From NCBI GenBank assembly GCA_041694815.1, contig JBGFSC010000047.1:23362-87361 (forward strand): a DNA stretch of 64,000 nt, given 5' to 3'. Position numbers and translations under genes: made by a program. Positions 35,685 through 56,588 of this stretch are shown one piece after another. Source of the DNA: Elusimicrobiota bacterium. GTDB taxonomy: Bacteria; Elusimicrobiota; Elusimicrobia; UBA1565; JACRDR01. How positions within the stretch are numbered: position 1 is the stretch's first letter; every line of letters starts with the position of its first letter. A model generated the notes under the pieces. It made no database searches and was not told the origin of the DNA. It was given only the letters and a program-made list of their open reading frames with translations.

Positions 35685-36889
35685 GGAAGGGATTCGGTGG
35701 AACGCCGCTCCGACAACGCCCAGGCGCCCAGGATCCAGAAGAAAGGCAGAGCTGAAAGATGGTAGCGTGGGATCGCCCAGTCGTTGGTGATATGGAGCGA
35801 CGCGTATAGAATGGGGCCCCCCAAGAGGAGTTGCTCACGCCAGCGACGTCGCAGCCGCCAGGCCCCCCATAGGCCGAAGGCCAGGGTCACCGACTGTAGG
35901 ATGAGCAGGGCCCCTTTAAAGGCCAGCGGGAGCCAGCGGTGCGCGGTGAAATACTCTTGGTTAGTGAGATTGATGCGGAATATCCCGCAGTGGCTCGTAA
36001 TCCAGAACTTGGCCAGGCGATAGGGCATCAACGACAGCAGCCTCGGCCAATTCGAGCTCCAATTACGGATCGCGAGCTCGCGGAAATGACGGTCGCCATC
36101 GGCGCTGTTGAAGTCCCCTTGTGGTCGAGCAGCGAGCGTCTCTTGGAAGTCGTAAGGGTAGTGCTCGAGAGAGCCGATCCACCAGGCATGGCCGGCGTCA
36201 CCGCTTACGGAAGTCCAGCTATGAAAGCGCAGGCGGTTGCGGACGGCCCACGGGGCGAGCGTAGACAGAAAACATATGAAGAAAACCGCCCAGAGCGCTG
36301 CACGCCGCCGCCAGGCTCCCCCCAACGATAAGAGGGGCAATAGACCCAGGGCGTAGAATTGATGCGCGGGCCGGCAGAGCACGGCGGCGCCAAGGAGCAG
36401 CCCCGCCATGGCGTAGAGCGACGCCTTCTCGCGCTTGGCGGCGCGGACGATGACAACGGTGAAGAGTAACCAAAGATTGAAGAATAAGGTCTCCGAGAGC
36501 AGATAGGCGCTCATACCCACAAAGAGGGGATGCAAGGCATAGATAAGGCCGCAGGCCAAGGCCGGTCCCCAAGCCATGAAGGCGGCGGCGATCAGCGCGA
36601 CCCAGATCGTGCTCAGGGAGTCGACGACCGCCTGAGCACCCAGGACGGGCTCGATCCGGCCGCCGGCCAGGCGGAAAAAGCAGGAGACGAACAACGGGTA
36701 AAGCGGAGGGCGGCGCAGGGTAGGCGCCGTGCCGTCGATCGTAAATCCCTGCCCTTGGGCCAGATGCACCCCTATGCGGACGTAGTCGTAGCTGTCGGGC
36801 ATGAGCGGGTCGATCGCCCGCGAGCCGATGACGGCGACGCGCACGGAAAAAGCGACCAGAAAGAGAAGGGCGGCGCGTTTAAACGGCAC
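35666..36889 (-). CDS. GT-C family membrane glycosyltransferase (ArnT/GT39-like)
   Basis: N-terminal TM then periplasmic DSYDYVRIG loop motif; about 10 TM helices. Confidence 0.5.
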   Translation of the reverse strand: MPFKRAALLFLVAFSVRVAVIGSRAIDPLMPDSYDYVRIGVHLAQGQGFTIDGTAPTLRRPPLYPLFVSCFFRLAGGRIEPVLGAQAVVDSLSTIWVALIAAAFMAWGPALACGLIYALHPLFVGMSAYLLSETLFFNLWLLFTVVIVRAAKREKASLYAMAGLLLGAAVLCRPAHQFYALGLLPLLSLGGAWRRRAALWAVFFICFLSTLAPWAVRNRLRFHSWTSVSGDAGHAWWIGSLEHYPYDFQETLAARPQGDFNSADGDRHFRELAIRNWSSNWPRLLSLMPYRLAKFWITSHCGIFRINLTNQEYFTAHRWLPLAFKGALLILQSVTLAFGLWGAWRLRRRWREQLLLGGPILYASLHITNDWAIPRYHLSALPFFWILGAWALSERRSTESLPWAASK

Positions 36890-38645
36890 GGGAGACGCTC
36901 CTGGCGGGGCGGGGCTTGGGCTGCGCGGACGGATTGACGGCGATGAAATCGCCGAGGGCCAACACGTCGAGATGGCCCTGCGAGAAGGCGCGCAACGCGT
37001 CGGAGGGCGAGCATACGATGGGCTCCTCGTGCATGTTGAAGCTGGTGTTGATGAGCACGGACAGCCCGGAACGTTTCTTGTACTCTTGGAGCACCTTAGC
37101 CATCGACGGGTTGATCCGCTCCTCGACCACTTGGGGACGCGCCGTCCCGTCGATATGCACCGTCGCCGGCGCCTCCTTTCTGCAGCGCTCCGTCGTATCG
37201 TAGGTGATCGTCATGAACTCGGCGGGATAGGCCGTCTTCTCGCCGTAACCCTTGAGGTATTTGCCGGCATCCTCCCGCAGCAGTATCGGAGCAAAGGGCA
37301 TGAACTCGGAGCGCTTGAGCCGGTCGTTGAGCCAGTCATTGATGGAGGGATCTGTGCCGTGGCAAAGGATGGAACGGTTGGCCAGCGCCCGAGGACCGTA
37401 CTCCATCCTTCCAGCCACCCGCGCCACCACCTTCCCGGAGGCGAGCTGCTCGGCGATCTCCCGCTCCACCTCTGGGGATTTGTGGAACGGAAATGGGTTG
37501 CGCCGCAGCTCTTCCTCGATCGCCTTGTCGGAATACTCCGAACCCAGGTAGACGTCCTTGAGCCGAAAGGGCCTGGCCTTCGCGCCCGCCTTGTTCATCA
37601 GCTCTGCGTTATGCCCCAGCGCGGCGCCCAACGGGATCCCACCGTCGCCCATGTTGGGGTGTATGAAAACGCTCTCTACCCCGTCTATTTCCGCGACCCG
37701 CTGGTTGAGCCGCACATTGGCGAAGACGCCTCCCGCCAGGACCAGATCGTGGATACCCGCGTCGGCGATCATCGTCTTGAGGTAGGCGGTGACCAATTCC
37801 TCGAGATGGGCCTGTATCCCCGCGGCGATATCCTCGCGGCTGAACCCCTTGAGCAGCTTTTTGAGCCTCTCGGTCTCGTGGCGGAAGAATCGACCTTGAT
37901 TAAAAAACGAGCGCCGACTAGGGTCGTAGCGGATCTCCGCCTCGAAAATCTTCTTGGTGGCCGCAGGGTCGCCGGCGGCGGCCAAGCCCGTGATCTTGCC
38001 CTCGTGCCGGCCGGGGATGAAGCCGCAGAGATAGGTAACGTACAGGTAGTAAAAGCCGATCGAATGGAACTCCGGGATCTGGAAGAACGGGGTCATGGCG
38101 CCATCCTGGCCCAGGAAGACGCGCGAACAGTAGCCGTCCCCGGCCCCGTCTACCGTCACGACGAGCGCGCGGTCCTTAGCCCCCGTGTAATAGGCCGAAT
38201 AGGCGTGCGCCGTGTGATGGTCATGGAAGGAGATCGGCGCCGAGATGCCGAAGCCGCGACGGATGAGCTCCTCGAAGCCCTCCCAGCGCTTGTTGGGCGC
38301 GGCGCGGTAGAGCGCGTTGCATACCTCGATGCCCCACACCGTGCCGAACATGTACTTGAGCAGCCCGAGCCGCTCGAAGAAATCGACCGCCTGAAAGCCC
38401 TTGGTCTTAAAATCGCCGAGGATGAAATCTTCCCAGGCCTGATTCTTGCCGGCGATGACCACGTGCTCGACCTCGGACGGCTTGATCCCGGTGTGGCGGA
38501 AGGCCTCGGCCAGGCACTTCTCTGGGAAGCCCGCGTAGCCCTTGACGCGGTTGTAGCGCTCCTCGTTGGCCGCGAAGAGTATGCCCATGCCGTCGACTAA
38601 CGCGACCCCAGCCTCGTGGCCGAAATGCAGGCCGAGCGTGATCAT
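36879..38645 (-). CDS. carbamoyltransferase (NodU/CmcH family)
   Basis: MITLGLHFGHEAGVALV N-terminus, Kae1/YgjD-like fold blocks; start moved to ATG 38645 (ATGA overlap) because the ORF-track extension overlaps the upstream gene. Confidence 0.7.
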   Translation of the reverse strand: MITLGLHFGHEAGVALVDGMGILFAANEERYNRVKGYAGFPEKCLAEAFRHTGIKPSEVEHVVIAGKNQAWEDFILGDFKTKGFQAVDFFERLGLLKYMFGTVWGIEVCNALYRAAPNKRWEGFEELIRRGFGISAPISFHDHHTAHAYSAYYTGAKDRALVVTVDGAGDGYCSRVFLGQDGAMTPFFQIPEFHSIGFYYLYVTYLCGFIPGRHEGKITGLAAAGDPAATKKIFEAEIRYDPSRRSFFNQGRFFRHETERLKKLLKGFSREDIAAGIQAHLEELVTAYLKTMIADAGIHDLVLAGGVFANVRLNQRVAEIDGVESVFIHPNMGDGGIPLGAALGHNAELMNKAGAKARPFRLKDVYLGSEYSDKAIEEELRRNPFPFHKSPEVEREIAEQLASGKVVARVAGRMEYGPRALANRSILCHGTDPSINDWLNDRLKRSEFMPFAPILLREDAGKYLKGYGEKTAYPAEFMTITYDTTERCRKEAPATVHIDGTARPQVVEERINPSMAKVLQEYKKRSGLSVLINTSFNMHEEPIVCSPSDALRAFSQGHLDVLALGDFIAVNPSAQPKPRPARSVSRAV

Positions 38646-39727
38646 TTGTAGTTGGGGCAGCCGACGCACTCCGGTGGCTGCTTGTCGTAGAAGTCCGCCC
38701 GGAAGCGTCGGAAGGCCTCCGAATTCCATATCTCCGAGAACGGGGTCTCGAAGATGTTGCCCATATTGAGCACCGAGGGGTTGTAGATCGTGCAGCAGGG
38801 GGTCACGTAGCCCTCGGCGGTCACCAGAGGGCTGAACCAGGGAAGCTGGCATTGGCCGAGATCGTTGGAGGACTCGCCGAAGGCCTCGGTGATGATCTCG
38901 ATGCGACGCCCGACCCTCCACCCGCGCAATTTATCGAGGAAGGCCTCGACCTCCGGCCGGCTTAGGCAGGACTCGCCGACCACGGCGTCTCCCAGCGTGT
39001 TGTTGAGCAGCTGGACGTAGAGCACGTCGACGCCGATCTGCTCAGAGCGAGCCACGAGATCCTCCATGGCCGGGGCCGTCTCCTTCATGAGTATCGCACG
39101 AAAGGAAAGCAGTGGCCTACGCGCGCCGGCCGCGCGGCGCAACTCCACGAAGCGCGCGACGTTCTCGGCGATCTTCTTGATCGAGGCACCGGCGCGGGTG
39201 TAGGCGAATATCTCCTCGTCGAAGCTATTGACCGAGACGGAGAGGTTCGTCAAGCCGGCCTCGATCATCTCCCGGGACTTGTTCTCGGTCAGGGCGGTGC
39301 CGTTGCTGTTGAAATAGGTCGATATGCCGCGCTCAGTGCAGTAACGGATGATGCGGGCTGTGTCCTTGTTGAGCAGCGGCTCGCCGATACCCTGCACGAC
39401 CACGTAGACGAGGTTGGGAAATTGATCGAGGACATGCCTGGCCTGCTCGAAGCTCATGTCCGCCTTCTGGTAGCCGTTGTAGGCCAGGCTGGGGGTCCCG
39501 AGAGGGCAGGTATTGCAGGTGAGGTTGCAGCGGTTGGTGACCTCCAGAAATAGGCATGGGGGCGAATACCCGACGCTGGGCGGGTGGCGCCGCCGCGCCA
39601 CCTGCGCCGAAACGCGGGCCAGATTGAGCAGTCCCGACACTCCCTGATGCGCGACGACGCGAGTCAGAAGACCCGGACCGACCTGCCGGTCGAGCTTCTC
39701 CTTGAGCCGCAGCAGATAGCCGATCAT
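38642..39727 (-). CDS. radical SAM protein with SPASM/twitch C-terminal domain
   Basis: CNLTCNTC (CxxxCxxC) cluster motif; C-terminal Cys-rich TPCCTIY...ECVGCPNY. Confidence 0.75.
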   Translation of the reverse strand: MIGYLLRLKEKLDRQVGPGLLTRVVAHQGVSGLLNLARVSAQVARRRHPPSVGYSPPCLFLEVTNRCNLTCNTCPLGTPSLAYNGYQKADMSFEQARHVLDQFPNLVYVVVQGIGEPLLNKDTARIIRYCTERGISTYFNSNGTALTENKSREMIEAGLTNLSVSVNSFDEEIFAYTRAGASIKKIAENVARFVELRRAAGARRPLLSFRAILMKETAPAMEDLVARSEQIGVDVLYVQLLNNTLGDAVVGESCLSRPEVEAFLDKLRGWRVGRRIEIITEAFGESSNDLGQCQLPWFSPLVTAEGYVTPCCTIYNPSVLNMGNIFETPFSEIWNSEAFRRFRADFYDKQPPECVGCPNYK

Positions 39728-39753: not shown

Positions 39754-41397
39754 CTAACGGCGGGGCAGGGCGTAGAGGCGTATCGCGGGGCCGGTGCGCC
39801 GCCCACGCTCCGGGAAGAACTCGGCCAGAAGCCGTCCCTGGCGCTCGAGCCCCCCGACGAAAGCGAAGAATTCCGATAGGCCCCAAGCCCCGAAGCCCGT
39901 AAGCGCCACGTACTCGACTCCAGCCTTTTTGGCCGCCGCGAGGCCGCCACGCACGTCGAGCACCGGCTGCGCCGCCGCCGAGAAGGCGGCGTGGCCGGGA
40001 TAGGAACGCAGGTCCCGGTAATCACGCGCGACGCGGTATATGTCGTAACCCCCACCCGGATGCCCCGCCAGCATCATCTCGTAAAGCTTCTTCTTCGGAT
40101 GGCCCGCGCGCGCGGTCTGCTCGAGCAGGCGCTCGAGCATCGCACGGCTGAGGGGCAGGCGGGGCGAGGCGTGCTCCTGGTCGAGCAGTAGCACCGACGG
40201 CTGGGGGATATGCTCGAGCATCCAGGCGGCCGAGAGCGTTCTCGTGTCGGGGAGAAGCAACACCCGGTCGAAGGCCGCGCTGGCCCAAAACCCAGGCAGG
40301 GACGCGGCGAGCGCGACGGCTGCCGGCCACAGGCGATGCCGGGTCCAGGAAGGGCCGCGCGCCGCCCAGGACAGGACGGCGTCGACGCCCGCGGAGGCGG
40401 CGAAAGCGAGCCCGCCGAAGCAGGCGATGAGATACCGGAGCCAGGAACCGTCCGGCGAGCCAGAAAGCGCCAGCACGAAGGCGCCGATCGGCAGCAGCAC
40501 GAGCAAGGCCCATTCGCGGCGCGCGCGCAGCATGGTCAGGACGCCGAGCAATAAAAGCGCTCCGCCCGTCGGCCAAGGCCCGGAAAAGAGCCATATATTG
40601 CGCAGCACCGTCTTGGCCCCCACCGGCTCTCCGACGCGGCCTAACGCCATCATATCCTCCACGGCGAGGCGGAAGGCCGGGAAATCAAGGAACAGGTAGG
40701 GAGAACCGATGAAAAGCGCCGCCGCGAGAAAACCATAGGCCGCGGCCAGGTCACGGAATTTGGCGGCCCCGGCGCGCAGCCGCCGCGACAGGAATGCCGC
40801 CAGGGGCAGCGCCCCCAACGGCAGGGCGGTGTATTGCGTCGCGAAGCAGAAGCCGACGAAAGCCCCGCATAGCCACAGGTCCCGCCGCTTTCCGTCGAGG
40901 ACGAAGCGCAGCGCGAAGGCCCAAGCGCAGGCCGACAGGAAAAAGAGCATCGACTCCGGCTTGCTCGCGTGCGCCGCCTCCACCAGCACCGGCGCGGCGG
41001 CCAGGAGCGCTGCCGCCGTCCACGCCGCGGTCCGGCCCCAGGCGCGGCGGCAGCTTGAATAGACGACGGCGATGGCCGCCACGGAAAACGAGGCGGCGAG
41101 CACACGCCCGATCAGCACGAAGGAACCCGGATCCCAGGCGAACAGGACGCCGAAATCCCGCACGCTCCTGAGGAGACCAAGGCCGGACCAGATTAGGTAG
41201 TAGATGCCGTAGGCGGCGAATAGCACGTACATCCACAACGTCGGATACTTGAAGAGATGGGGATGGAGGTTGCCGCCGCCGAAGGATACCGCGATGCTGA
41301 CGAAATGGGGCTCGTCGGCGTTAAAAATCGCGGGAAGGCCGTAATGGATCGCCGTCAGGCGCAGCGCTGCCGCGACGGCGAGGATCGCCCAAAACAT
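39754..41397 (-). CDS. GT-C family membrane glycosyltransferase (ArnT-like)
   Basis: FNADEPHF periplasmic-loop motif, >10 TM helices; start either 41397 (MFWAIL) or 41454. Confidence 0.5.
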   Translation of the reverse strand: MFWAILAVAAALRLTAIHYGLPAIFNADEPHFVSIAVSFGGGNLHPHLFKYPTLWMYVLFAAYGIYYLIWSGLGLLRSVRDFGVLFAWDPGSFVLIGRVLAASFSVAAIAVVYSSCRRAWGRTAAWTAAALLAAAPVLVEAAHASKPESMLFFLSACAWAFALRFVLDGKRRDLWLCGAFVGFCFATQYTALPLGALPLAAFLSRRLRAGAAKFRDLAAAYGFLAAALFIGSPYLFLDFPAFRLAVEDMMALGRVGEPVGAKTVLRNIWLFSGPWPTGGALLLLGVLTMLRARREWALLVLLPIGAFVLALSGSPDGSWLRYLIACFGGLAFAASAGVDAVLSWAARGPSWTRHRLWPAAVALAASLPGFWASAAFDRVLLLPDTRTLSAAWMLEHIPQPSVLLLDQEHASPRLPLSRAMLERLLEQTARAGHPKKKLYEMMLAGHPGGGYDIYRVARDYRDLRSYPGHAAFSAAAQPVLDVRGGLAAAKKAGVEYVALTGFGAWGLSEFFAFVGGLERQGRLLAEFFPERGRRTGPAIRLYALPRR

Positions 41398-42703
41398 GAA
41401 GACGTTATTATACAATTTGCCCGTGCAACGCCTGGCGGCGGCCGCCGCGCGCATCCCCGAGACGGCCTCTTTCGCCCTGGCCCTGATCCTGCGGCTGGCC
41501 TTCGCGGCGGCGTTGGGGCATCGCCTCTATCAGATCGACGAAGGCGCCTTCGACGCGGCCGCGAGAAGCTTGGCGGCCTCGGGAACCCTCGGCCCTACGC
41601 CGACGGTGCTCGCCCCGCTGCCCCCTCTTTTCTTCTCGCTTTTCTATCGGCTCGCCTCGACCCCCCTGGCCCCCCGCCTGGCCCAAGCCGCGCTCGGGGC
41701 GCTGTTCGTGCTCTTGCTGGGCCGGGCGGTCCGGGACATCTCCCGCTCCGAGGCGGCGGGGAGAATCGCCGCGGCGCTCGCCGCTATCTACCCCTTTTAC
41801 GTCTACTATTGCGGGATGCTCATGAGCGAGACCCTTTATCTTTTCTTCTCGGTCGCCGGGCTCTGGGCCTTCTGCCGCCTGCTGCGCGGCGGCGGGAGGA
41901 TGCTCGACGCCTTGGGGGCGGGAGGCGGGCTGGCGGCGGCTGCCCTCTGCCGCACCGAGGCTGCGCCGATCGCGGTACTCGTGTTCGCCGCGGCCGCGGG
42001 ATTCTGCGCGCGGCGCCTGCTTTCCCGCAGGCTTTGGGCCGCGGCGCTTTTCGCCTGGCTGCTGCCGCTGTCCTTATGGTGCGCCCGAAACCGCGCCGAA
42101 ACCGGGAGATTCACGCTCGATACGCACGGAGGCATCACGCTGCTGCACGGCACGCTGCTCTTCGAGCATAATGAGATCGATACCGAGGAAGCCATGCGGA
42201 TTTTTCGCCAAACACCCTTATACCAGGCGACGCGCGGACTGCCCGAGGCTGATCAGGACGCGGCCTTCCGGCGCGCGGCTTTCGAGCATATGCTCGAGAA
42301 CCCGCGCCGCACCCTGGGCCAGTGGGCACGCAAAAGCGTGAGTTTCTGGCGCTTCTACCCGCGCGTGGATAAGGCCTACGCCCAAAGCCCCACCAGCAAA
42401 CCGGACATGGGGCTGGGCCGCTGGGCCTTGGTGGCCGTCAGCCTACTTTTTGAGCCCTGGCTGATATTGCTGGGGGCCTTCGGCTTCTGGGCCCGCGGCC
42501 GGAAGGCGGAGTGGCTGCCTTTGTGGCTGTTCGTGCTGGCCACGATGGGCATACACGTGCTCAGCGTCAGTCAGATGCGTTACCGGCTGGCGGTGACACC
42601 CTGGTTGATGCTCGCCTGCGCTACCATGGCCACCAGCGCTCCCGGCGCGCGGGAGTCGCCAGGGCCGAGTGGAGCGCATCAAGAACGGAAGAGATCTTGG
42701 TGA
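41396..42703 (+). CDS. GT-C family membrane glycosyltransferase (ArnT-like)
   Basis: YQIDEGAFD loop motif; multiple TM helices; divergent from the previous gene with overlapping CATG start codons. Confidence 0.45.
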   Translation: MKTLLYNLPVQRLAAAAARIPETASFALALILRLAFAAALGHRLYQIDEGAFDAAARSLAASGTLGPTPTVLAPLPPLFFSLFYRLASTPLAPRLAQAALGALFVLLLGRAVRDISRSEAAGRIAAALAAIYPFYVYYCGMLMSETLYLFFSVAGLWAFCRLLRGGGRMLDALGAGGGLAAAALCRTEAAPIAVLVFAAAAGFCARRLLSRRLWAAALFAWLLPLSLWCARNRAETGRFTLDTHGGITLLHGTLLFEHNEIDTEEAMRIFRQTPLYQATRGLPEADQDAAFRRAAFEHMLENPRRTLGQWARKSVSFWRFYPRVDKAYAQSPTSKPDMGLGRWALVAVSLLFEPWLILLGAFGFWARGRKAEWLPLWLFVLATMGIHVLSVSQMRYRLAVTPWLMLACATMATSAPGARESPGPSGAHQERKRSW

Positions 42704-43619
42704 CATCCTCTCCCCGACATCCGTCCTGGGGACAGACCTTCGACACCATGCAATCGCTGTTGGCATAGCGGTAATCGGGCTCACCGCGCACAAGGACTCC
42801 TTCGATCTGCAGCGTCCTGGCGTTGAATACGGCGCTGCCTGAGTTGCCGTGATAGGTATCCAGATCGGTGACAAAATATCCCCGCGGGGAGGAGTCCCGC
42901 ACGGAGGCGCCTCCCGATACCTTGGTCGGGATGCCGGAAGGATGGCCGATGACGAGCAGGGGCGTCCCGTTTTCGATATGCCCGGTTTCGTTGACTCCGA
43001 GAGGCGCATGACCCTTCACGGGACGGTCCAAACGAACGAGCGCCCAATCGGACCCGTCCTCATAGATTCCCGTAAGATAATCGTACTCGTCCCTGCCGTA
43101 CTGGGGGAAACGGGTGCTGACCAGCCCGGCGCAGCCGTAGACCTCGCTCAACGGCACGGCCAGAGGGGCGTACCCCCTCTTTTTGATTTCGAAGCCGAAC
43201 ACGAATTTCGTGCGATAGCAGCTGTCTTGCGTCGGCACGCAATGGCCCGCCGTCAGCACCAGGTCCGGCCCGACCAGCGCGCCGGAGCAGAACGCCCCCG
43301 TCGGCTGGTCGAAAAACGGCTCCTCCGAGCATAGCCTGAATTCATGCCCGAAGACGTCCGTCTTAAGGAAAGCCCAAAAATCGCCCGGGATCATGGGACT
43401 CGAGAATCGGCGCGGGCGTCTCTGCGTCACGTTATCGGCGTTGAATAAGGCGACCGTCGAATCCGCCAGCCTTCGGATTTCTGGGTCGTCGATCTCGTAG
43501 AGGTCCTTGCGGTCATCCTGCCCGTAAATGACGGGCGGCGGCCTTTTCGGCTCCGAAAGCTCCTGCGCCGAAGCCCCGAAGTCCATCATAAACGCTAATG
43601 CCGCAAACAAGGTTCTCAT
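42621..43619 (-). CDS. secreted trypsin-like (S1B, V8/glutamyl-endopeptidase-like) serine protease, paralog 1
   Basis: signal peptide MRTLFAALAFMMDFGASA; catalytic LTAGHC (His), DWALVRLD (Asp), GNSGSAV (Ser). Confidence 0.7.
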   Translation of the reverse strand: MRTLFAALAFMMDFGASAQELSEPKRPPPVIYGQDDRKDLYEIDDPEIRRLADSTVALFNADNVTQRRPRRFSSPMIPGDFWAFLKTDVFGHEFRLCSEEPFFDQPTGAFCSGALVGPDLVLTAGHCVPTQDSCYRTKFVFGFEIKKRGYAPLAVPLSEVYGCAGLVSTRFPQYGRDEYDYLTGIYEDGSDWALVRLDRPVKGHAPLGVNETGHIENGTPLLVIGHPSGIPTKVSGGASVRDSSPRGYFVTDLDTYHGNSGSAVFNARTLQIEGVLVRGEPDYRYANSDCMVSKVCPQDGCRGEDVTKISSVLDALHSALATPARRERWWPW

Positions 43620-43620
43620 A

Positions 43621-44643
43621 TCAATCACACATGAGCGCCTGACCCGTCTCGCAATCGTGATGACAGCCATGGGCGAAATAGGTCTTCGAACCCTCCAGGC
43701 ACATACGCGGCAGGCCGAGCGCCTCGATGGCCCCCAGCCGAACCACCCCGATGCCAGTCCCGCCATCCGGGTCGTAGGCCTTGAAGGTCCAGCAGTCCCT
43801 GCCGGCGTCATACGCGTAATCGCCGTCGTAGCTAAACGAGATAATCCCCTCGATTAAACCCGTATTCCGGTTGAACACCCCGCTGCCCGAGTTTCCGTGA
43901 AAAGCATCGATCGCCGCCATGAAATGGTTTACTGGGCTGTCGTCTCGCACCGCTCCATTGTCGGCGATCTTGGTGGGCAGGCCCGAGGGATGGCCGATGA
44001 CGACGAGCGGCGTGCCGACCGGGATATGCGCGCTGACGTTCATGCCGATCGGCTCATGGCCTGCGACGGGCCGATCCAAGCGTATGAGCGCGTAATCCTT
44101 CTTGACGGCCCAGTCCATTTGGCGCTCGACCAGCTCGGCGCAATCGTACACCTCCTCGGTCGGCGCGGTCGAGGGGTATTCCCCTTCGCGCCTGACCGCG
44201 AAGCCGAATACGAATTTGGTGGCTGCGCATTCCTCCTGGTCGCGGACGCAATGGCCCGCGGTCAGGATCCGGTCCGGGGCGATCAAGAAACCCGAGCAGA
44301 ACGGCCCCAGGGGTTGGTCGTAGAAGCGCTCTCCCTGGCAAAGGGGGTGCCCTTCCCACAACGGAAGCTGATCGTCGGCCGGCAGGTCGGGGTTGAAAAC
44401 GGGCATGTAAAGCGTAGCCGCGCTGTAGAGCTCCGTCTTGAGCGCCCACCCACCCTCGATCGGCATCAATTCCTCGGCATCGAAAAGCCCCACCGTGGAG
44501 TCGGCCAAGCGCAGCAGCATGGGGTCACGGACTTCATATAGGTCCTTGCGATCGTCGACCCCGTAAATCACCTTGGGGGGCCTGGCTTGCGCCGAGGCGG
44601 CCAGAATCGCGAGCGCCCCGAGCGCTCCGAAAACCCTCACCAC
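43621..44643 (-). CDS. secreted S1B serine protease, paralog 2
   Basis: TAGHCV, DYALIRLD, GNSGSGV; GTG start at 44643 gives signal peptide MVRVFGALGALAILAASAQA. Confidence 0.65.
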   Translation of the reverse strand: MVRVFGALGALAILAASAQARPPKVIYGVDDRKDLYEVRDPMLLRLADSTVGLFDAEELMPIEGGWALKTELYSAATLYMPVFNPDLPADDQLPLWEGHPLCQGERFYDQPLGPFCSGFLIAPDRILTAGHCVRDQEECAATKFVFGFAVRREGEYPSTAPTEEVYDCAELVERQMDWAVKKDYALIRLDRPVAGHEPIGMNVSAHIPVGTPLVVIGHPSGLPTKIADNGAVRDDSPVNHFMAAIDAFHGNSGSGVFNRNTGLIEGIISFSYDGDYAYDAGRDCWTFKAYDPDGGTGIGVVRLGAIEALGLPRMCLEGSKTYFAHGCHHDCETGQALMCD

Positions 44644-45551
44644 GGCCCCCGATGCGGCCACGGCGGGCTCTGGGGCCATAAGGCGCTGACGGTGGAAGCC
44701 CGATTGACCCCGATACCCGAACCCTCCCCCGGCCCGTACACCTTCGCCGCGTAGCACTCGCGGTATTCGTCGAACTCGTAATCGTTGTCGTAGCTAAACG
44801 AGATGATACCCTCGATCCAACCCGTGTCGCGGTTGATGACGGGGCTGCCGGAATTCCCGTGGAAGGCGTCGACATCCGCCAAAAAATAGCTCGAGATCCC
44901 ATAGCCCGGCCGCGCGACGCGTACCGTCCCGTTCTCGGCCACCTTCGCCGGCAGGCCCGAGGGATGGCCGATGACCACCAGTCGAGCGTCGTCCGGTACC
45001 ACGCCGCCGAGATTAGTCGACAACGACTCACGACCTTGGACGCGCCGGTCCAAGCGCACCAGGGCCCAATCGGCCGATTGCACCTCGCTGAAGGCGTGGT
45101 CGATGAGCTCCGCGCAACGATACACCTCGGAGCTGGGGAACTCGGTGGGATACTCGCCCGCCCGCTTCACGTGGAAGCCGAAGACGAATCTCAGTCCGTC
45201 ACAGACCGTCTGGGAAGGAACACAATGCCCGGCCGTCAAAACCAGGGCGGGACCGACCAGCGCCCCGGAGCAATAGGAAGCCGAGGGTTGCTGGTAGAAA
45301 CGCTCCTTTTGGCATAGGAAGCGCGCGTCTCCGTAGCGAGTGGCGGTGAAGCCCCAAGCCCCGTCCGGCTTCTGGGTCAAGGCGTCCGCTTGGAAAAGGG
45401 CCACGGTCGAGTCCGCCCAGCGCAGGATGCGCGGGTCGCGGACCTGATACAAATCGAGCCGATCATCCTGTCCGTAAATGACAGGCGGCGGCCCCTTGGG
45501 CTCGGCCTCAAGCGGAGCGGCAATAAGGCCCAGCAGCCAAAGGGGGTTCAT
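44637..45551 (-). CDS. secreted S1B serine protease, paralog 3
   Basis: TAGHCV, DWALVRLD, GNSGSPV; start overlaps the paralog-4 stop (ATGA). Confidence 0.7.
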   Translation of the reverse strand: MNPLWLLGLIAAPLEAEPKGPPPVIYGQDDRLDLYQVRDPRILRWADSTVALFQADALTQKPDGAWGFTATRYGDARFLCQKERFYQQPSASYCSGALVGPALVLTAGHCVPSQTVCDGLRFVFGFHVKRAGEYPTEFPSSEVYRCAELIDHAFSEVQSADWALVRLDRRVQGRESLSTNLGGVVPDDARLVVIGHPSGLPAKVAENGTVRVARPGYGISSYFLADVDAFHGNSGSPVINRDTGWIEGIISFSYDNDYEFDEYRECYAAKVYGPGEGSGIGVNRASTVSALWPQSPPWPHRGPW

Positions 45552-46618
45552 CGGGGCCGCCCTCGCTGGAAAATCGGGTCGTCGGGGTCGGGTATATAGG
45601 GTGCGACAGCAGCGATCTTCGTGGCCCCTTCGCCGCTGCAGCCGTTTAGGGCACAGGTCTTGACCCGGGCGCAGCGGTCCTCGCCGTACGGGTAGTCATA
45701 ATCCGACTCACCGTCGACCAAAATTCCCTCCACCTCGAGCGTCCGGGCGTTGAGGACAGGGCTGCCGGAATTGCCGTGGAAGCTGTCGAGGGTGGTCGTG
45801 AAGCGGTTTAGGTCCTGCACGTCCCGTGCGACAGCGTTGCCGGCGATCTTGGTCGGCAGGCCAGCCGGATGGCCGATGATGAGTATGGGGGCTCCGGGTT
45901 CGATGTAACCCGTCCGGTTGATCCTCAGCGGCGCATGGTCCGGGACCGAGCGGTCCAGGCGGATCAGCGCCCAGTCGGGCAGGGATGCCGGCTGGGGCGG
46001 CGTGGGGTCGGGATACGGCTCTATCTTGCGGCGTGTCGGGCTGTAGGTCCCGCCGCCGAAGCCGCCGCCAGTGACCGGGCCTTCCACATAACCGCGCGCG
46101 ACGACGGAGCGGCAGGCGTAGACCTGGTCGCCCGGCGCGCCGCGGGGGTATTCCCCCTCCTTCTTAACGCTGAACCCGAATACGAAACGGATCATCTCGC
46201 AGGCCGCTTCGGAGGCGACGCAATGCCCCGCCGTCAGTACCAGGTCCGGGGCCACGAGAAAGCCGGAGCAGAAGGGACCCACCGGCTGATCGGCAAAGCG
46301 CTCCCCTTCGCAGAGGAAGGCGTAATCCCGATATACGCGCGTATCTAGGTCGAACCAGTCGACGTAACCTGGGTCCAGGCGCGGGGTGCGGTCATCGGCG
46401 GGCGCCTTCCAGCGGCGCACGTTATAGGTCCAAAAAAGCCCGACCGTCGAATCCGCCAGGCGGCGAAGCGCCGGGTCTTCTATTTCGTAAAGGTCTTTAC
46501 GATCGTCTTGCCCGTATATGGTCGGCCCGGGCCGGGACGGCGGGGCCCCGGTCGGGGCGCTATATAAAGGAGAGCCTGCCAATAAAAAGGCTAGCGCGCG
46601 CAGGATAGGGGGGGGCAC
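45548..46618 (-). CDS. secreted S1B serine protease, paralog 4
   Basis: TAGHCV, DWALIRLD, GNSGSPV; signal peptide MPPPILRALAFLLAGSPLYSA. Confidence 0.7.
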   Translation of the reverse strand: MPPPILRALAFLLAGSPLYSAPTGAPPSRPGPTIYGQDDRKDLYEIEDPALRRLADSTVGLFWTYNVRRWKAPADDRTPRLDPGYVDWFDLDTRVYRDYAFLCEGERFADQPVGPFCSGFLVAPDLVLTAGHCVASEAACEMIRFVFGFSVKKEGEYPRGAPGDQVYACRSVVARGYVEGPVTGGGFGGGTYSPTRRKIEPYPDPTPPQPASLPDWALIRLDRSVPDHAPLRINRTGYIEPGAPILIIGHPAGLPTKIAGNAVARDVQDLNRFTTTLDSFHGNSGSPVLNARTLEVEGILVDGESDYDYPYGEDRCARVKTCALNGCSGEGATKIAAVAPYIPDPDDPIFQRGRPR

Positions 46619-46746: not shown

Positions 46747-47790
46747 CTACTCGTCCAAGCTGAACGCCTTGATACCGGCCGGGTCGCGCTTTTGCGCGAG
46801 GAAGCGCAGGTTCACGCTGAACCAATGCGTGTTGTAGAGGGAATCGATGCTGTACTGGAAGGCGTAGTCGATCGAGATGCCGGCCGAGCGCGTATCCCAC
46901 GCGTAGCCGAAGCCCGCGGTCGGGTCGTAGGCGTTGGCGCCGGCTCGCAGCCAGAACCCCTTGTAAGCCTTCCACTCCCCGCCCAGGTGCACCTTTAGGT
47001 TCTGGTCCCGCGCCTTGACGAAGTCCAGGGCAAGGCTCCATTTCGGATTCGGCGAATAGGCGGTCCCTAACACGTACTTGGTCGTGACCGGCTCGCTGTA
47101 GCTATACTCCGCGCCGATATTATCGTCGCTCAATTTCCAGTCCAGCGCGCCGCTCAGGTCACGGACCAAGAAACCTAGGTCGAATTTTCCCCACCGCGTC
47201 TGCGGCAGACGGTAAATCGCCCCGACGTCGAAGGAATTGCCGTCGGCGGAGGCGGCGTGCAGTTTCTGCGTCAGGATCTTGCCCGTGAACCCGACTGAAA
47301 AATTCTCGATCGCCTGCAGGCCCAGCGAGAAATAGTAGGCGTGCTCGGAGTTCTCGAAGTTGCTTTGCGGCTGGCCGAACTCGCTGCGTCCCTCGATGTT
47401 CTTGGTGGCGAAGGAGGCGAGGCCCCCTGCCAGCGCGATGTAGATGCTCTGGGAGCCTTGGCGGAAATCCCAACCCTCGTGCCGGATCGTCCAAGGCAGC
47501 AGGTAGCCGACGAAGTACAGCGACCGGTCGATTCCGAGCACGCCGGAATTCGTCGCCAAGGAATGGGCGGGCACGAAGGTCATCAGCCCGGGGTTGGCGA
47601 GCAAAGCCGTCGCGTCCATGGGCTCCAGTGCGGCGCGGGCCTGGCCCATGGCGATGGCCCTCGCCCCGGCGACCAGGTCAAGGTAGGCCGCAGCCCCCTT
47701 GGCGTACCCGGAATCCTCGGCAAGAGCGGTGCCGGCGGACAGCAAAAGAACCGCGGACGCGGCGGCAAGTCCTTTCAACGCCCGACCCAT
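46747..47790 (-). CDS. outer-membrane beta-barrel protein (possibly PorP/SprF- or PorV-like)
   Basis: signal peptide MGRALKGLAAASAVLLLSAGTALA, alternating beta-strand pattern, C-terminal aromatic; directly downstream of a T9SS-CTD cargo gene. Confidence 0.4.
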   Translation of the reverse strand: MGRALKGLAAASAVLLLSAGTALAEDSGYAKGAAAYLDLVAGARAIAMGQARAALEPMDATALLANPGLMTFVPAHSLATNSGVLGIDRSLYFVGYLLPWTIRHEGWDFRQGSQSIYIALAGGLASFATKNIEGRSEFGQPQSNFENSEHAYYFSLGLQAIENFSVGFTGKILTQKLHAASADGNSFDVGAIYRLPQTRWGKFDLGFLVRDLSGALDWKLSDDNIGAEYSYSEPVTTKYVLGTAYSPNPKWSLALDFVKARDQNLKVHLGGEWKAYKGFWLRAGANAYDPTAGFGYAWDTRSAGISIDYAFQYSIDSLYNTHWFSVNLRFLAQKRDPAGIKAFSLDE

Positions 47791-49601
47791 TTGAGCACCG
47801 CGATCTTGCCGGTAGCCGAACGCTCGCCCATGCTGACGCGGTAGAGGTAGACCCCGTTGGCGACGTCCGCGATCGGCCAATTCACTTCCTGCCAGCCGGC
47901 GCCCGGGGCATTGACGCTCAGGGTTCGGATGGCGCGGCCCGCGGTAGTAAAGAGCTGGATCTCGGCGGAGCCGGCGGACTCGGCGTAAAAGGTTATTTTG
48001 GCGCTTCCCTGATGCACGGGATTCGGGTAGGAAAAGCTCTGTAATTGATTGCCGGCCGAGAGGACGGAAGGGTTCGTCGAGGCTCCTGCCTCAGTCGTGT
48101 CCGTCACGATGGCCTGGAAGTAGGAGTCGGCGCGCCCGGCCGCGACGATCCGGACGGTGTAGGTCCCAGCGGGGAGGCTGCCCACCGCGTAGGTCCCGTC
48201 GGTCTGCGTCGTGGCGGCGCCGATCTGCACGCCTCCGTTGAGCACCGTCACCGCGGCGCCGGCGATGGGGACGCCGTAGATGTCTGTCGCCTGGCCGTAG
48301 ACCGCGTTGGGAATATTGGTGAGGAAAACGTTGCGTAGCACGTTCACGGAGCTGGCTCCTACCTGCGTAATCACACTGAAAGTCTGAGTACCCAGGTTGC
48401 GGCCCACGGCCTTCACCCTCCAGTCCACCTCGGCGGTGGCCGAGGACGCCACCACTCCGCTGCCGGCGACTACCTCGATCGGCTTGGTGGCCGTCTCGCC
48501 CGTATCCAAGGAGAAGCCCGGCCTAAGGCGCAGCGTGGCCTGCGCGCCTGAAACGGCCGAAGCGGTGACGTTCGAGAAGAAAGCCGATACGACGAAGGGG
48601 GATGGATGATACACGTACGAATTCCCCTGCACCTCGCCCGTGAGTTCGGCCGGGGCAAACAGCCCTATCTGGAAAGGCGACCAGTTCTGGAAGGTGTAAT
48701 CCCCCAGCCCATAGAGGATGGCGAAGCTGGTGGTGCCCCCCGGCAGGAGATTGATCGCCTTGGCGTCTGGATACCCCCACCAAACGATCACCGAACTGTC
48801 GCTGTCGGGGCTGGATCCGGAGATCTTGCCGTCGTTGTTGTTGTCGAGGAAGGAGCGCGTGGGATCGACCGTATAATCCCAAGCGCCGCTCGAGATGGGC
48901 CAGTAACCGAATACCAGCCGATCCGGAGTCTTGTAGCCGATATTATTAAAGGTAAACAGCCCGATCGCCGTCGGGTTGGCCAGGCTGTCGAAAACGAGGG
49001 TCGTCAATGGGATGCTGCTGACGTTCACGGTGGCCGGGTCGTTGTCGAACTGCCTGTCCTTGGTGATCTCCCCTACGAAAGGGACCCGGAAAGGCGCGCC
49101 GTCGTTGGATCCCAGCATCGTGTCGAGCTGCACGCGCAGGCCGACGTTGTGGGCGACGCTATCGAGATTAGTCAATTGGTAGAAGATCTCCACCGTATCC
49201 TGGTTCCGGGTGCCCCTAGACTTAACGATGCTTAAGCGCTCGGTGACGCGGATATTCGCCGTCGTGATGTTCACCGTGCCGACCATGCCGCTCAAGATCG
49301 CGCCGGTGCTCGAGCCGGTATGGATGGAGTAGGAGGTCGCGTCCACACGGAGCATCGTGTCGCTCGTCGAGGCGCCGGGGTGCCCGAAGAGCAGCTTGCG
49401 CCCCGCCCCGTCGCCGATGGTGAATTTGCCGTCGTCCTTGAGCGTGACCTGAATGAAAGAGTTATTGTTGGTGACTGTGGCGGCCGGGGCGAAGGCGGTC
49501 CGCGCCGATTGCGTCGCGTAGGACGACTTGGATTGGACGGGAGCGTTTTGGGCCCAAAGAGGCGACGCGCAGAGCAGCCAAAGCACGGGAGCCGGTCGCA
49601 T
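47775..49601 (-). CDS. cell-surface protein with T9SS-type C-terminal sorting domain and CarboxypepD_reg-like domain
   Basis: C-terminus SYPNPV...LFTTAGR...GVYLYRV...KIAVLK matches the Por-secretion CTD pattern; signal peptide MRPAPVLWLLCASPLWAQ (start 49601). Confidence 0.6.
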   Translation of the reverse strand: MRPAPVLWLLCASPLWAQNAPVQSKSSYATQSARTAFAPAATVTNNNSFIQVTLKDDGKFTIGDGAGRKLLFGHPGASTSDTMLRVDATSYSIHTGSSTGAILSGMVGTVNITTANIRVTERLSIVKSRGTRNQDTVEIFYQLTNLDSVAHNVGLRVQLDTMLGSNDGAPFRVPFVGEITKDRQFDNDPATVNVSSIPLTTLVFDSLANPTAIGLFTFNNIGYKTPDRLVFGYWPISSGAWDYTVDPTRSFLDNNNDGKISGSSPDSDSSVIVWWGYPDAKAINLLPGGTTSFAILYGLGDYTFQNWSPFQIGLFAPAELTGEVQGNSYVYHPSPFVVSAFFSNVTASAVSGAQATLRLRPGFSLDTGETATKPIEVVAGSGVVASSATAEVDWRVKAVGRNLGTQTFSVITQVGASSVNVLRNVFLTNIPNAVYGQATDIYGVPIAGAAVTVLNGGVQIGAATTQTDGTYAVGSLPAGTYTVRIVAAGRADSYFQAIVTDTTEAGASTNPSVLSAGNQLQSFSYPNPVHQGSAKITFYAESAGSAEIQLFTTAGRAIRTLSVNAPGAGWQEVNWPIADVANGVYLYRVSMGERSATGKIAVLKWVGR

Positions 49602-49689
49602 GCCGCTAATACGTAACAGGAACTTCAAAAAAATGCAATACATTCTTAGGTGCCTGGGCGAAAGTCAATCCCTGGCACCTAGGCCACGC

Positions 49690-53287: not shown

Positions 53288-54940
53288 TTAAGGAGTGGGC
53301 GGGGGCAGAACCATCGGCCTTTCTGGTTTTAACTCCGAGCGCTGCAGCTCCACTTCCTGGAGCAGCAGGCTGGGGTTCACCGTGGAGGTCGGCAAGGATC
53401 CCGACGCATGTTCCGAGAGGGAGTCAGTAACTTCGAAATCGTCGCCGGCCGCGAGTATGCGGCCCGCCAGATCGAGCGGAGTGCCGACCAAGTCGAGATC
53501 GCGGACGAGAGTCTGCCGCCCGCTGTCGGTCTCGACGAGGTAAACGCGCGTCGGGACCAAGCGCAGGGCTTGCTGCTGCCCAGTCTTATCCTGCTGCCTC
53601 CAGCTGCGCACTCCCTGGATGTAGACCCCGTACGGCTTGCCGCGGCGGCGGCATTCCTCACGCAAGAGTTCCAGCAGGTGGGGCTTGGAAAGAGGCCGAT
53701 TCGAACGGAGAAATAGATTACCCGCCCGGCCCGTCGGCATCAGGCCGGGCGCCGCGCGCCCATGCCCGTTGGAGCGGCCGAATCCAATGACAGGGTGCCG
53801 CGAGAGCAGAAAGCCGCGCAATACCCCATTCTCCACTAATACGGTTCTGCGCGGCTCCACGCCTTCCTCGTCGACGTGATAATGCCCGAGCAGGGCGCGT
53901 CCTCGGAATTCACGCAGGGTCGGATCGTCCTCGAGACTGAGGAATGGCGGCATCACCGCCTTGCCCAATTTGTCGCGGAATGTCTGGGCCCCATCCGGAT
54001 CGCGCTGCTGCTCGCCCGAAAGCCGCAGGGCGAAGGCCTGCAGGACGGCGGCCCCCACGGACGGGTCGAGCAGGGCGGGGGCGTTGAAGGGAGACGTGGA
54101 AGAAGCCTCCGTGAGGGCGGCCATGTCTTCGGCCATGGCCTGGATCTCGGCGGAAAGTCGTTCTCCCTGGGGCAGGCCCGAGGCGTCACGGGCCATGTAG
54201 GAACGCGCTAGTTTCGTACGCATGCCCTCGGGGCTCAGGCCTTCCGCCTCCAGCTGCAAACGGAACCAAGAATCCCCATAGCGCACACGGCTTCCCTCGG
54301 AATCGATGTGCAGGTTGCCCAACGCCTGCCAGCTGAGCTCGGCCTGGGAATCGAGCACGTGTGTCCTGCCGGCCAAACCTCGCGACGCCTCCAGGCACGC
54401 CTGCCGGCCCGCCCCCTCGAAGGCCTCCCGCTCGCGCTCGAGATCCGGCCTTGGGAAATCACGGCGCAGCGGCGTCTGGCGGCTGCGGTCATCGGTGTCG
54501 TATTCCGTCGGCCCACGGCGCACGCGCAACGCCTGCTTGCGCAGCAGGGCCGCCGCGGCCTTCTTGTATTCCGCGTCCAGGTGGAACCACGTGAAGTGCC
54601 TTACGGAAAGTTCGTCCGCCCCGTCGGGCATCTCGCGTCCCTTGAAACCCTCCGAGGCGCCTAAGGGATGGTTATCGAGCTCGTAGCCGCCAACCCGCAG
54701 CTCGGGCGTCAACAGGCGCTGGCGGCTGGCGGCGGAGCTTTTCAATCCTCCCGCCGAGCAGCGATGCTCGCCCGAGAGCACGTCGGACACTCGAAGCCCG
54801 ATGTAATACGGAAGTGGGTATCCCTCCTGCCGCAGCGAGCTCGTCGAGCGGGCGATCTCGCGCGCGAGGGCTTCCTCCAGATCCGCGGAGGCAGGAGCGG
54901 CCAGCACGCAGCAGAGCAAGAAGGAGAGGCTACTTCTCAT
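53288..54940 (-). CDS. TldE/PmbA-like (peptidase U62 family, no HExxxH) protein with signal peptide
   Basis: signal peptide MRSSLSFLLCCVLAAPASA; TldD/PmbA-fold C-terminal blocks (GHYHVDEEGV, GVLRGFL, GRSNGHGR) but no HExxxH. Confidence 0.55.
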   Translation of the reverse strand: MRSSLSFLLCCVLAAPASADLEEALAREIARSTSSLRQEGYPLPYYIGLRVSDVLSGEHRCSAGGLKSSAASRQRLLTPELRVGGYELDNHPLGASEGFKGREMPDGADELSVRHFTWFHLDAEYKKAAAALLRKQALRVRRGPTEYDTDDRSRQTPLRRDFPRPDLEREREAFEGAGRQACLEASRGLAGRTHVLDSQAELSWQALGNLHIDSEGSRVRYGDSWFRLQLEAEGLSPEGMRTKLARSYMARDASGLPQGERLSAEIQAMAEDMAALTEASSTSPFNAPALLDPSVGAAVLQAFALRLSGEQQRDPDGAQTFRDKLGKAVMPPFLSLEDDPTLREFRGRALLGHYHVDEEGVEPRRTVLVENGVLRGFLLSRHPVIGFGRSNGHGRAAPGLMPTGRAGNLFLRSNRPLSKPHLLELLREECRRRGKPYGVYIQGVRSWRQQDKTGQQQALRLVPTRVYLVETDSGRQTLVRDLDLVGTPLDLAGRILAAGDDFEVTDSLSEHASGSLPTSTVNPSLLLQEVELQRSELKPERPMVLPPPTP

Positions 54941-56588
54941 GGAACGGAGAGGGAAGGAGGGGTGGGCGCGAGCGCTCCTCGGGCAGGCGCTGCAGCTCCA
55001 CCTCCGACAACAGCAGGCTCGGGGCGATCTGGTTGACGGCGACCGAGCCCGATTCGGCGCCGCAATTGAACGGATTGGAGAGCTTGCTGTCGTCTCCGGC
55101 GGAAAGTATCCGGCTGAGCACCACGAGGGGGGTGCCCACCATCTTAACGCCGCGCACGGGCGTCTCCTCGCCCGTCTTAGCGTCTACGCGGAACACCAGC
55201 CGCGGGCGAACCTCCAAGGTTTGCGCCGCGCGACGGTTGTTAGGGTTCTCGCCGCCGGAGGAGCCAACCAGCCGCAGGCCGTATGGTTTTCCCCGCGCAC
55301 GGCAGAGGGCCATCAGGCGGCGCTTGAGCTCCGCGGGGCTGACGGGCTCATGCGGGATCACCATCAAGTTCCCCATCCGCCCGCTCGCATGATGCACCGC
55401 GTCGGCACGCCCGTGCCCGTTGGAGCGCGCAAAGCCACGGATCGGCCAGCGGGACATGAGGAAATTCCTCAGAACGCCGCGCTCTACGAGCGTCACGCGC
55501 TGTGCGGGCACTCCCTCGTCGTCGTAGGTGTAATGCCCGTGCAGGGCCTGTCCGTGGAACTCCTCGAGAGTGGGGTCGTCGACCACACTCAAGAACGGGG
55601 GCAGGATGGTCGAGCCCACCTGATCGCGGAATACCTGGCTCTCGTTCGGATCCCTCTGCCTCTGGCCCTCGAGCTTATGCCCGAGGGCCTCGTGGAAAAA
55701 TACCCCGGCGAACTCGGGGTCCATGATGGCGGGAGCCGAGAACGGGGCTTGGACCGGGGCCTGCCTCGCGGCAGAGAGCTCCGCGGCCAAGGTGTCGACT
55801 TCCCGCTCCAAAGCCGCCGTCGCGGGAAGCTCGGAAGCCTCGCGCACCGTCCACGCGCGGCGATTATCTAGGCGCATGCCATCGGCCGCGCGCGTCCAAG
55901 CGCTGAGCACGAACAATAACGGCGTATGCTCGCTCGGTGCCGCGATGCGGGTCCCCTCGCTGGTAAGCAGGTAGCGCCGCGAACGGCTCAGCGAAGCGAA
56001 GGCGTAGCTGCCGTAGACGAACGGGTAGCGTTTGAAGCGCGCACTGGCGGCCTCCAAGGCAGGCCGTAGCGAGTCGATATCGGCCTCGGGAGCCTGCGGC
56101 AGGAAGGCCTCGCTCGGGGGCTCCGCGGAAAAATCGTCCAAGCGCTCGCGGTCGAGCTCCGTGGCCTTGCGGGCCTTCTTGTCGAGATAATCGGCCACGG
56201 CTGATTTATAGGATTCGTCGGTAAGTTGCCAGAGCTGGTGGCGCAGCACGCCGGCATCTATCGAGGCGGGACCCGATCGCCCATGGTAGCTGAGGTCGGT
56301 GTTATCGAAAGCGGGAGAGCCAAAGCGCGTCTCCACGTAGAGCGTGCGGTCGCGTTCTACGCCGCCGCGCAGCTGGGCCCCGAGCGCGTAGACCAGGCGT
56401 TGGGAACTCTCATCGCTTAAGCGGTAAGCGATGAAATAAGGAGGGCCGAAGGAGTCCAAGCGCAGGCGCTCGATCGATCGATCCATCTCCGCGCGCATCG
56501 CTGAGAAGATCGCGAGGTCGGCGGCCGTCGGCGTGGAAGCGGCCGAGGCCGGGCAGGCCAGGACCGCGATGAGGAACGCGAGGCGCAT
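54930..56588 (-). CDS. TldD-like zinc metalloprotease (U62) with signal peptide
   Basis: signal peptide MRLAFLIAVLACPASA; HEALGH (HExxxH) motif; GHYTYDDEGV, GFARSNGHGR blocks. Confidence 0.6.
   Translation of the reverse strand: MRLAFLIAVLACPASAASTPTAADLAIFSAMRAEMDRSIERLRLDSFGPPYFIAYRLSDESSQRLVYALGAQLRGGVERDRTLYVETRFGSPAFDNTDLSYHGRSGPASIDAGVLRHQLWQLTDESYKSAVADYLDKKARKATELDRERLDDFSAEPPSEAFLPQAPEADIDSLRPALEAASARFKRYPFVYGSYAFASLSRSRRYLLTSEGTRIAAPSEHTPLLFVLSAWTRAADGMRLDNRRAWTVREASELPATAALEREVDTLAAELSAARQAPVQAPFSAPAIMDPEFAGVFFHEALGHKLEGQRQRDPNESQVFRDQVGSTILPPFLSVVDDPTLEEFHGQALHGHYTYDDEGVPAQRVTLVERGVLRNFLMSRWPIRGFARSNGHGRADAVHHASGRMGNLMVIPHEPVSPAELKRRLMALCRARGKPYGLRLVGSSGGENPNNRRAAQTLEVRPRLVFRVDAKTGEETPVRGVKMVGTPLVVLSRILSAGDDSKLSNPFNCGAESGSVAVNQIAPSLLLSEVELQRLPEERSRPPLLPSPFHEK

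Follow-up and report, generated by a model that had tools for sequence, protein, structure and literature searches.

Two questions are raised by a run of four adjacent genes for putatively secreted serine proteases in an Elusimicrobiota bacterium: what kind of enzyme do they encode, and why are there four of them side by side? The genes, here called P1 to P4, lie in a stretch of 64,000 nucleotides (contig JBGFSC010000047.1 of assembly GCA_041694815.1, positions 23,362 to 87,361 of the forward strand), which is referred to below as the window. A first reading of this DNA, made from the letters alone and called here the sequence-only reading, took the products for V8-like glutamyl endopeptidases of subfamily S1B, and offered surface-protein maturation, glycoprotein processing or nutrition as their role. 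On the evidence given below, the four genes are likely a lineage-specific tandem expansion that encodes exported S1 endopeptidases of the BspK/Bd1962 type. Their specificities would have diversified, and protein foraging is their probable use.

Organization of the protease array

Four minus-strand open reading frames (ORFs) occupy 46618-42621 without a spacer (Table 1), exactly where the sequence-only reading had placed four tandem paralogs, and its statement that stop and start codons overlap or abut was borne out at all three junctions. The P1 stop and the P2 start share the tetranucleotide ATGA and so overlap by 4 nt, the overlap of the P3 start with the P2 stop ranges from 4 to 43 nt according to the start chosen, and a single base separates the TGA of P3 from the ATG of P4. 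Two in-frame alternative starts are available to P3, GTG at 44640 and ATG at 44679, and each candidate start overlaps the P2 stop. The public gene model P0001 uses the upstream ATG at 44679 and gives P3 as 352 aa, with 12 additional residues, while the public model P0028 begins P4 at a downstream Met (43589) and yields a product of 322 aa that has lost its signal peptide. The comparison of N-termini within the family favored ATG 43619 as the start of P4. The four genes are probably co-transcribed and translationally coupled, as their junctions suggest. The window is GC-rich throughout (61-71%) with no compositional break at the array, and the three proteins of the window that are on record are singleton clusters.

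Fold, catalytic residues and export

All four proteins scored above the Pfam gathering cut-offs for Trypsin_2 (53-64 bits against 27.6, E values of 1e-14 to 3e-17) and for Trypsin (33-50 bits against 20.6), and the NCBIfam profile search gave no match for any of the four. The pairwise comparison proposed along with the sequence-only reading gave identities of 39-49% with E values of 1e-66 to 1e-95, which exclude chance as the source of the likeness among P1-P4. The order and motifs of the catalytic residues, the profile matches and a double β-barrel fold place the proteins in clan PA, family S1. The AlphaFold2 model of P3 had a predicted local distance difference test score (pLDDT) of 83 and a predicted template modeling score of 0.81, with a core above 90.

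The intact His/Asp/Ser triad that had been reported for all four copies was confirmed, and each copy also has the oxyanion-hole Gly193. The triads are His132 (46223-46225), Asp215 (45974-45976) and Ser284 (45767-45769) in P1; His109, Asp161 and Ser234 (44850-44852) in P2; His131, Asp183 and Ser252 (43888-43890) in P3; and His126, Asp191 and Ser260 (42840-42842) in P4. TAGHC and HGNSGS are identical in all four, and the catalytic Asp lies within D[WY]AL[IV]RLD. The possibility that the catalytic residues had been misassigned did not hold up on alignment, where TAGHC, D[WY]AL[IV]RLD and GNSGS were invariant across 40 homologues. All four copies look catalytically competent. Several motifs had been described as uniform and are less so: GNSGSP is found in P1 and P2, with GNSGSG in P3 and GNSGSA in P4; the shared N-terminal block IYGQDDRxDLY reads IYGVDDR in P3 and is preceded by Thr in P1 (TIYG); and DWALxRLD reads DYALIRLD in P3.

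The copies differ outside the catalytic machinery. P1 carries an insert of ~31 residues, rich in Gly and Pro, directly ahead of the catalytic Asp, and P4 has ~12 extra residues there, a site which we take to be the 99-loop in chymotrypsin numbering. P3 has 22 further residues in a loop after strand 1, a stretch of low pLDDT in the model. The C-terminal Cys pair (CxxxxCxGE in the case of P2) is missing from P2 and P3. P3 ends in a 28-residue tail rich in Cys and His, MCLEGSKTYFAHGCHHDCETGQALMCD (43621-43710, minus strand), that is missing from the other three and has a pLDDT below 50 in the model; a metal-binding or disulfide-rich appendage is one possibility.

Signal peptides were assessed by eye only. 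Those of P3 (cleavage between MVRVFGALGALAILAASAQA and Arg) and P4 (between MRTLFAALAFMMDFGASA and Gln) looked good, and the claim that all four proteins carry one is plausible, with P1 and especially P2 weaker. Ahead of the conserved [VT]IYG, 50% of the family has Lys and 5% has Arg, and Pro is found in 3 of 268 members; these three are P1, P2 and P4, which leaves P3 as the only array copy with Lys. We propose that the array products would be exported by Sec and then trimmed to a mature N-terminus near VIYGxDDR.

Relationship to BspK

BspK (Bd1962) of Bdellovibrio bacteriovorus HD100 is a secreted serine protease that was annotated as V8-like, and it cleaves after Lys in the manner of LysC, also cutting Lys-Pro bonds (PMC5288813). 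It is inactivated by the S230A mutation and processes itself after K28 and K210, with activity rising after processing (PMC5288813). Judging from this numbering, a Lys or Arg before VIYG, which P3 has as Lys and the other three array copies have replaced by Pro, is probably the K28 self-processing site. In BLASTP against the BspK sequence of Fig. S1 in that report, P4 was 44% identical over 295 aa (E 5e-73), and P1-P3 were 37-38% identical (E 8e-51, 2e-53 and 3e-48 for P1, P2 and P3, respectively). The published primers for S230A (PMC5288813) encode the family motif as YFVTNLDTYGGN(A)GSA. The full-length matches and this primer-encoded motif place BspK and P1-P4 in one family, of which BspK is the sole characterized member. 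Two other Bdellovibrio proteases, Bd2269 and BspE/Bd2692, were considered as relatives and set aside as subtilases.

Like the array proteins, BspK has a signal peptide and a single domain of ~30 kDa. The blocks in common are VIYGxD[DN]R, LADSTVAL, CSGxLV...TAGHC, D[WY]ALVRLDR, VIGHPSGLP, NLDTYGGNSGSAVFN, GILVRG and CPxxGCRGE. Position 192 is Gly in BspK and His in all four array copies, the LVRG wall of BspK is absent from three of the four, and three copies have Pro before VIYG whereas BspK cleaves itself after K28. In addition, the BspK gene stands alone rather than in an array and has one distant paralogue (bd0994), and the predator that carries it belongs to another phylum.

Divergence of the substrate cleft

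Divergence was mapped over 297 non-redundant members of the family. Residues 213-216 were placed by alignment register from Gly211 (an HMM alignment to the glutamyl endopeptidase 1p3c and a Streptomyces trypsin) and not by structural superposition. The family sequence D-T-Y-G-G-N-S aligned with residues 189-195, and the following ...EG with Gly211. Asp189 was present in 291 of 293 members. Position 192 was Gly in 94% of members and His in 2%, and His was found in all four array copies. LVRG occupied positions 213-216 in 95% of the family; within the array only P4 retains it, as BspK does, and the corresponding residues are LVDG in P1 and ISFS in both P2 and P3. Residue 190 is Ser in P1, Ala in P2 and P3, and Thr in P4. 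Among the pocket residues that the sequence-only reading wanted checked, the copies differ at 190 and 213-216, with P4 as the conservative copy.

P1-P3 are altered at cleft-lining positions that are otherwise 94-95% invariant (190, 213-216, and the loops that precede Asp102 and follow strand 1). P4 is canonical in retaining LVRG, Thr190 and CPQDGCRGE (motif CPxDGCRGE), and still has the array-specific His192 and the Pro before VIYG. Measured against the BspK-family cleft consensus of Gly192 plus LVRG, the array copies are homologous yet atypical, whereas duplicate copies in other genomes retain the canonical motifs.

Such changes could also mean that only P4 works and that P1-P3 are decaying or non-catalytic duplicates, serving if at all as substrate binders or decoys. 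The loss of the near-invariant LVRG from P1-P3, the loss of the C-terminal Cys pair from P2 and P3, the long branches of P1-P3 and the weak signal peptide of P2 would all fit this explanation. On the other hand, P1-P3 are full-length ORFs. Each retains the triad, Gly193 and the cysteine pair of Cys42-Cys58 type, together with ~50 columns that do not vary among 40 members of the family, and the changes in these copies cluster at specificity-determining positions and not in the catalytic machinery. The ISFS of P2 and P3, moreover, presumably restores the classical Ser214 of chymotrypsin numbering. We therefore regard loss of function in P1-P3 as unlikely, although it is the best surviving of the alternatives, and favor diversified specificity among four working endopeptidases.

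Copy number and phylogeny

A search of 5.8 billion protein clusters at E<1e-40 returned 2371 relatives for P3 and over 3700 for P4, and the named matches in these protein-cluster searches were all from Elusimicrobia. When GTDB species genomes were scanned, at least 573 loci were recovered, distributed over Elusimicrobiota and Bdellovibrionota (Bdellovibrio, Halobacteriovorax and Oligoflexia). A set of 162 related loci with flanks of 6-8 kb (80 from GTDB, 80 from metagenomes and 2 others) was examined by ORF calling and a family HMM. One copy was present in 155 of them and two in 6, and one had no callable ORF; no locus among the 162 (GTDB genomes and JGI metagenomes) had three or more. The four-copy array is therefore rare, in agreement with the remark in the sequence-only reading that a four-member array is unusual.

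The array copies are also isolated in sequence. No locus or protein in the protein clusters, GTDB or the metagenomes was closer than about 48% identity to P1-P3 or 58% to P4, and among the loci of GTDB genomes and JGI metagenomes none came closer than 45-48% to P1 or P3. Of the four, P4 most resembles the proteins of other genomes, with 53-58% identity to its homologues there and up to 63% in trimmed alignments. In neighbor-joining (NJ) trees, P2 and P3 were sisters (bootstrap 68-79%), the nearest relative of P1 was P4, and P1-P3 stood on long branches. The shared His192, the Pro-rich linker before VIYG and the adjacency of the genes suggest that a P4-like ancestor was duplicated locally and that the copies then diverged fast, and on these grounds we regard a single local origin of the four copies as probable.

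One member from Bdellovibrio sp. HCB337 (locus L046, 7872-9239) is 455 aa long, with a lipoprotein-like N-terminus, a linker rich in Pro, Ser and Thr, and an extra C-terminal domain of ~120 aa. Since this protein carries an additional domain, the family also occurs in multidomain forms.

A tandem arrangement of S1 proteases is known from the spl operon of Staphylococcus aureus, whose products we take to be far less diverged from each other than the array copies are. Up to six secreted S1 protease paralogs, SplA-F, are encoded there head-to-tail (PMC3793935). The resemblance is an analogy only: subfamily and phylum differ, and the spl genes do not overlap at stop and start codons.

Genomic neighborhood and surface sorting

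The features surrounding the array are listed with it in Table 1.

Table 1. The protease array and the features next to it (positions in the window).
Feature	Position	Strand	Remarks
P1 serine protease paralog	45548..46618	-	GTG start, 356 aa
P2 serine protease paralog	44637..45551	-	ATG start, 304 aa
P3 serine protease paralog	43621..44643	-	GTG start, 340 aa
P4 serine protease paralog	42621..43619	-	ATG start, 332 aa
Intergenic leader, 128 nt, PorV-like gene to P1	46619..46746	-	Two GC-rich hairpins
PorV/PorQ-family outer-membrane protein gene	46747..47880	-	NF033709 E 8.5e-21, below curated cut-off; directly upstream of array
622-aa protein, CarboxypepD_reg + type IX secretion system (T9SS) type A C-terminal sorting domain	47775..49643	-	TIGR04183 E 3.9e-11, above cut-off
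GT-C-like/Agl23-like membrane protein gene, 435 aa	41396..42703	+	Convergent with P4

With ORFs read to their stops, the 3' ends of P4 and the convergent GT-C-like gene overlap by 83 bp (42621-42703). The leader ahead of P1 folds with a minimum free energy of -61.6 kcal/mol (z -3.2), and in its second hairpin UCUAGGUUUCUC comes after a stem of 11 bp. The leader could serve as a terminator or attenuator and so make the array its own transcription unit. In a consensus promoter and terminator scan the leader hairpins did not score as a terminator, the T-tract rule being unmet, and the single promoter-like site of the scan equaled the expectation from shuffled sequence.

The array had been described as embedded in a glycan island, and many glycosyltransferase genes do flank it. 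At least six paralogous PMT_2/GT-C genes are found in the 64 kb (16137-18137, 20373-22784, 39754-41454, 41396-42703, 58116-59573 and 60945-62648), and the window also holds GT2, GT4-methyltransferase, GHMP kinase, NTP-transferase/HAD and sugar-nucleotide genes. This is an unusually dense glycosylation region, for which glycan island is a fair label. Within it, a radical SAM/SPASM maturase-like gene adjoins a NodU/carbamoyltransferase-like gene (36879-39727, minus strand). The strand of the array also has, a few kb upstream, two adjacent PmbA/TldD-family metallopeptidase-like genes (53288-56588, minus strand), whose products are 550 and 552 aa long.

This setting did not recur with the family. 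Homologues elsewhere stand in unrelated neighborhoods, for example next to RecA/XerD/LexA or M16/Memo/PBP1a, and the GT-C genes, the GT2 gene and the 622-aa sorting-domain protein of the window were not recurrent beside homologues in the related loci. A PorV-like neighbor recurred loosely, in 13 of the 162 loci, and was absent from the other 149. In those 13 it was mostly 2-7 kb downstream of the protease and on the same strand, preceded by a FlgD_ig/Por_Secre_tail protein, with the pair 0.5-7 kb from the protease. The pair seen in the window, a gene for a sorting-domain protein with a PorV/PorQ gene immediately after it, is found again at other Elusimicrobia loci (L055, 9413-12093; L056, 2817-5686), and T9SS-type sorting parts outside Bacteroidota may merit a study of their own.

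A second explanation starts from these neighbors and makes the array a processing or maturation battery for surface cargo, either bearing the C-terminal sorting domain or glycosylated, that is handled by the PorV-like protein and the glycosyltransferases. The sorting-domain and PorV/PorQ genes directly upstream on the same strand, the similar pair near a protease in the 13 loci and the PMT_2/GT-C genes of the window speak for it. It is weakened by the arrangement elsewhere, where the pair is downstream with unrelated genes (Memo, GIY-YIG, PBP1a) in between, which looks like clade-specific synteny and not a tight operon, by the many loci that lack a PorV-like neighbor, and by the strongly structured 128-nt spacer between the PorV-like gene and P1. 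In addition, none of the four proteases showed a C-terminal sorting domain (Por_Secre_tail/TIGR04183) in profile searches, and PorU, the known T9SS sortase, belongs to the cysteine peptidases and not to the serine peptidases. We consider this role improbable, somewhat more so than the loss of function in P1-P3 discussed above. Nothing was found that ties the array to glycan processing, and among the roles first offered the nutritional set fits best.

A more elaborate version, in which the sorting-domain cargo and the PorV-like protein of Elusimicrobiota form a minimal surface-sorting module processed by BspK-family proteases, and the array, with N-termini blocked by Pro in three copies, is a hierarchical activation cascade for the maturation of such cargo with the Lys-bearing P3 as its initiator, is a speculation to which we give little credence.

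Specificity and the glutamyl endopeptidases

His213 is common to all known glutamyl endopeptidases and essential in mutagenesis, and Thr or Ser is conserved at 190 (reviewed in PMC5508998). In the array, residue 213 is Leu (P1 and P4) or Ile (P2 and P3), and it is Leu in 95% of the family; residue 190, as given above, is Ala in P2 and P3. The motif GNSGSP, which had been read as a marker of glutamyl endopeptidases, does not single them out, and GNSGSA is the consensus of the family. Nor is the V8-like label a guide to function, since BspK bore the same label and cleaves after Lys.

Among sequences in the PDB, the best match was the glutamyl endopeptidase of Bacillus intermedius (1p3c, E 1.8e-11), followed by Streptomyces trypsins (~1e-8), and more weakly by exfoliative toxin (1.5e-5) and V8 (5e-4). 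Because the matches are spread over these enzymes, placement in subfamily S1B is not firm. The top structural match was the lysyl endopeptidase LysC (Achromobacter protease I, API; PDB 4nsv), which has only 14% sequence identity and gave no significant match in the PDB sequence searches; at the sequence level the array proteins do not belong to the LysC/API group. Asp189 was rejected as proof of specificity for Lys or Arg, because the Glu-specific 1p3c has Asp in the same column.

The S1B enzymes V8/SspA, Esp and 1p3c (MEROPS S1B) share with the array family GNSGS at the catalytic Ser and a VIGxDDR-like mature N-terminus, and they too are small, secreted enzymes of one domain for which trimming of the N-terminus brings activation. 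The array family differs from them in the absence of His213, in extra disulfides, in 35-60 aa inserted after strand 1 and ahead of the CSG strand, and in having a characterized homologue, BspK, that is Lys-specific and not Glu-specific. We infer that the array enzymes are probably not glutamyl endopeptidases.

The weakest of the explanations, that P1-P4 are V8-like (S1B) enzymes cleaving after Glu, is very unlikely: the annotation by JGI of many family members as V8-like Glu-specific endopeptidases, the top PDB sequence match to 1p3c and the VIYGxDDR N-terminus, which presumably resembles that of mature S1B enzymes, are outweighed by Leu or Ile in place of His213 in all four, Ala190 in P2 and P3, the cleavage after Lys by a BspK that had carried the same annotation, the almost equal scores of the Streptomyces trypsins and the first place of LysC among structural matches.

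Function and significance

We return to the tandem expansion of exported BspK-type endopeptidases as the preferred interpretation. P1-P4 would act together as endopeptidases with differing cleavage preferences, probably centered on basic residues, and would thereby widen the range of proteins open to periplasmic or extracellular degradation, with the acquisition of peptides and amino acids as the most likely purpose.

Several points weigh against this interpretation. The nutritional role is drawn from the general biology of secreted proteases and not from conserved context, and expression, secretion and activity of the four proteins are predicted. By eye, the signal peptide of P1 is moderate and that of P2 weak, with an n-region that has no basic residue, and the GTG start of P1 overlaps the only Shine-Dalgarno-like motif of that gene. 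The NJ tree gave no four-member clade (bootstrap 0-2%). Specificity is not readable from the sequences, Asp189 not being diagnostic. The BspK sequence used was machine-read from Fig. S1 of PMC5288813, and its ends differ from those of the cloning primers. In that sequence VIYG follows an Arg, and the Cys and Ser fall 2-4 residues lower than in the C99/S230/K28 numbering of PMC5288813; residues may have been dropped in text extraction, or the sequence may be that of a close variant.

Enzymes of this kind are already known, and the array is an atypical member set of a known family in an unusually large local expansion. Biologically, it is most likely an ordinary expansion of secreted proteases that involves no new mechanism. 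BspK is in use as a reagent for antibody analysis, and its diverged relatives could give new cleavage specificities. For the family as a whole, the results amount to an annotation correction: several thousand proteins, often called V8-like and Glu-specific, lack His213, and the one tested member is Lys-specific. The array itself is a natural experiment in the evolution of specificity, in which the conservative P4 stands beside three copies changed at 192, 190, 215/216 and the loops.

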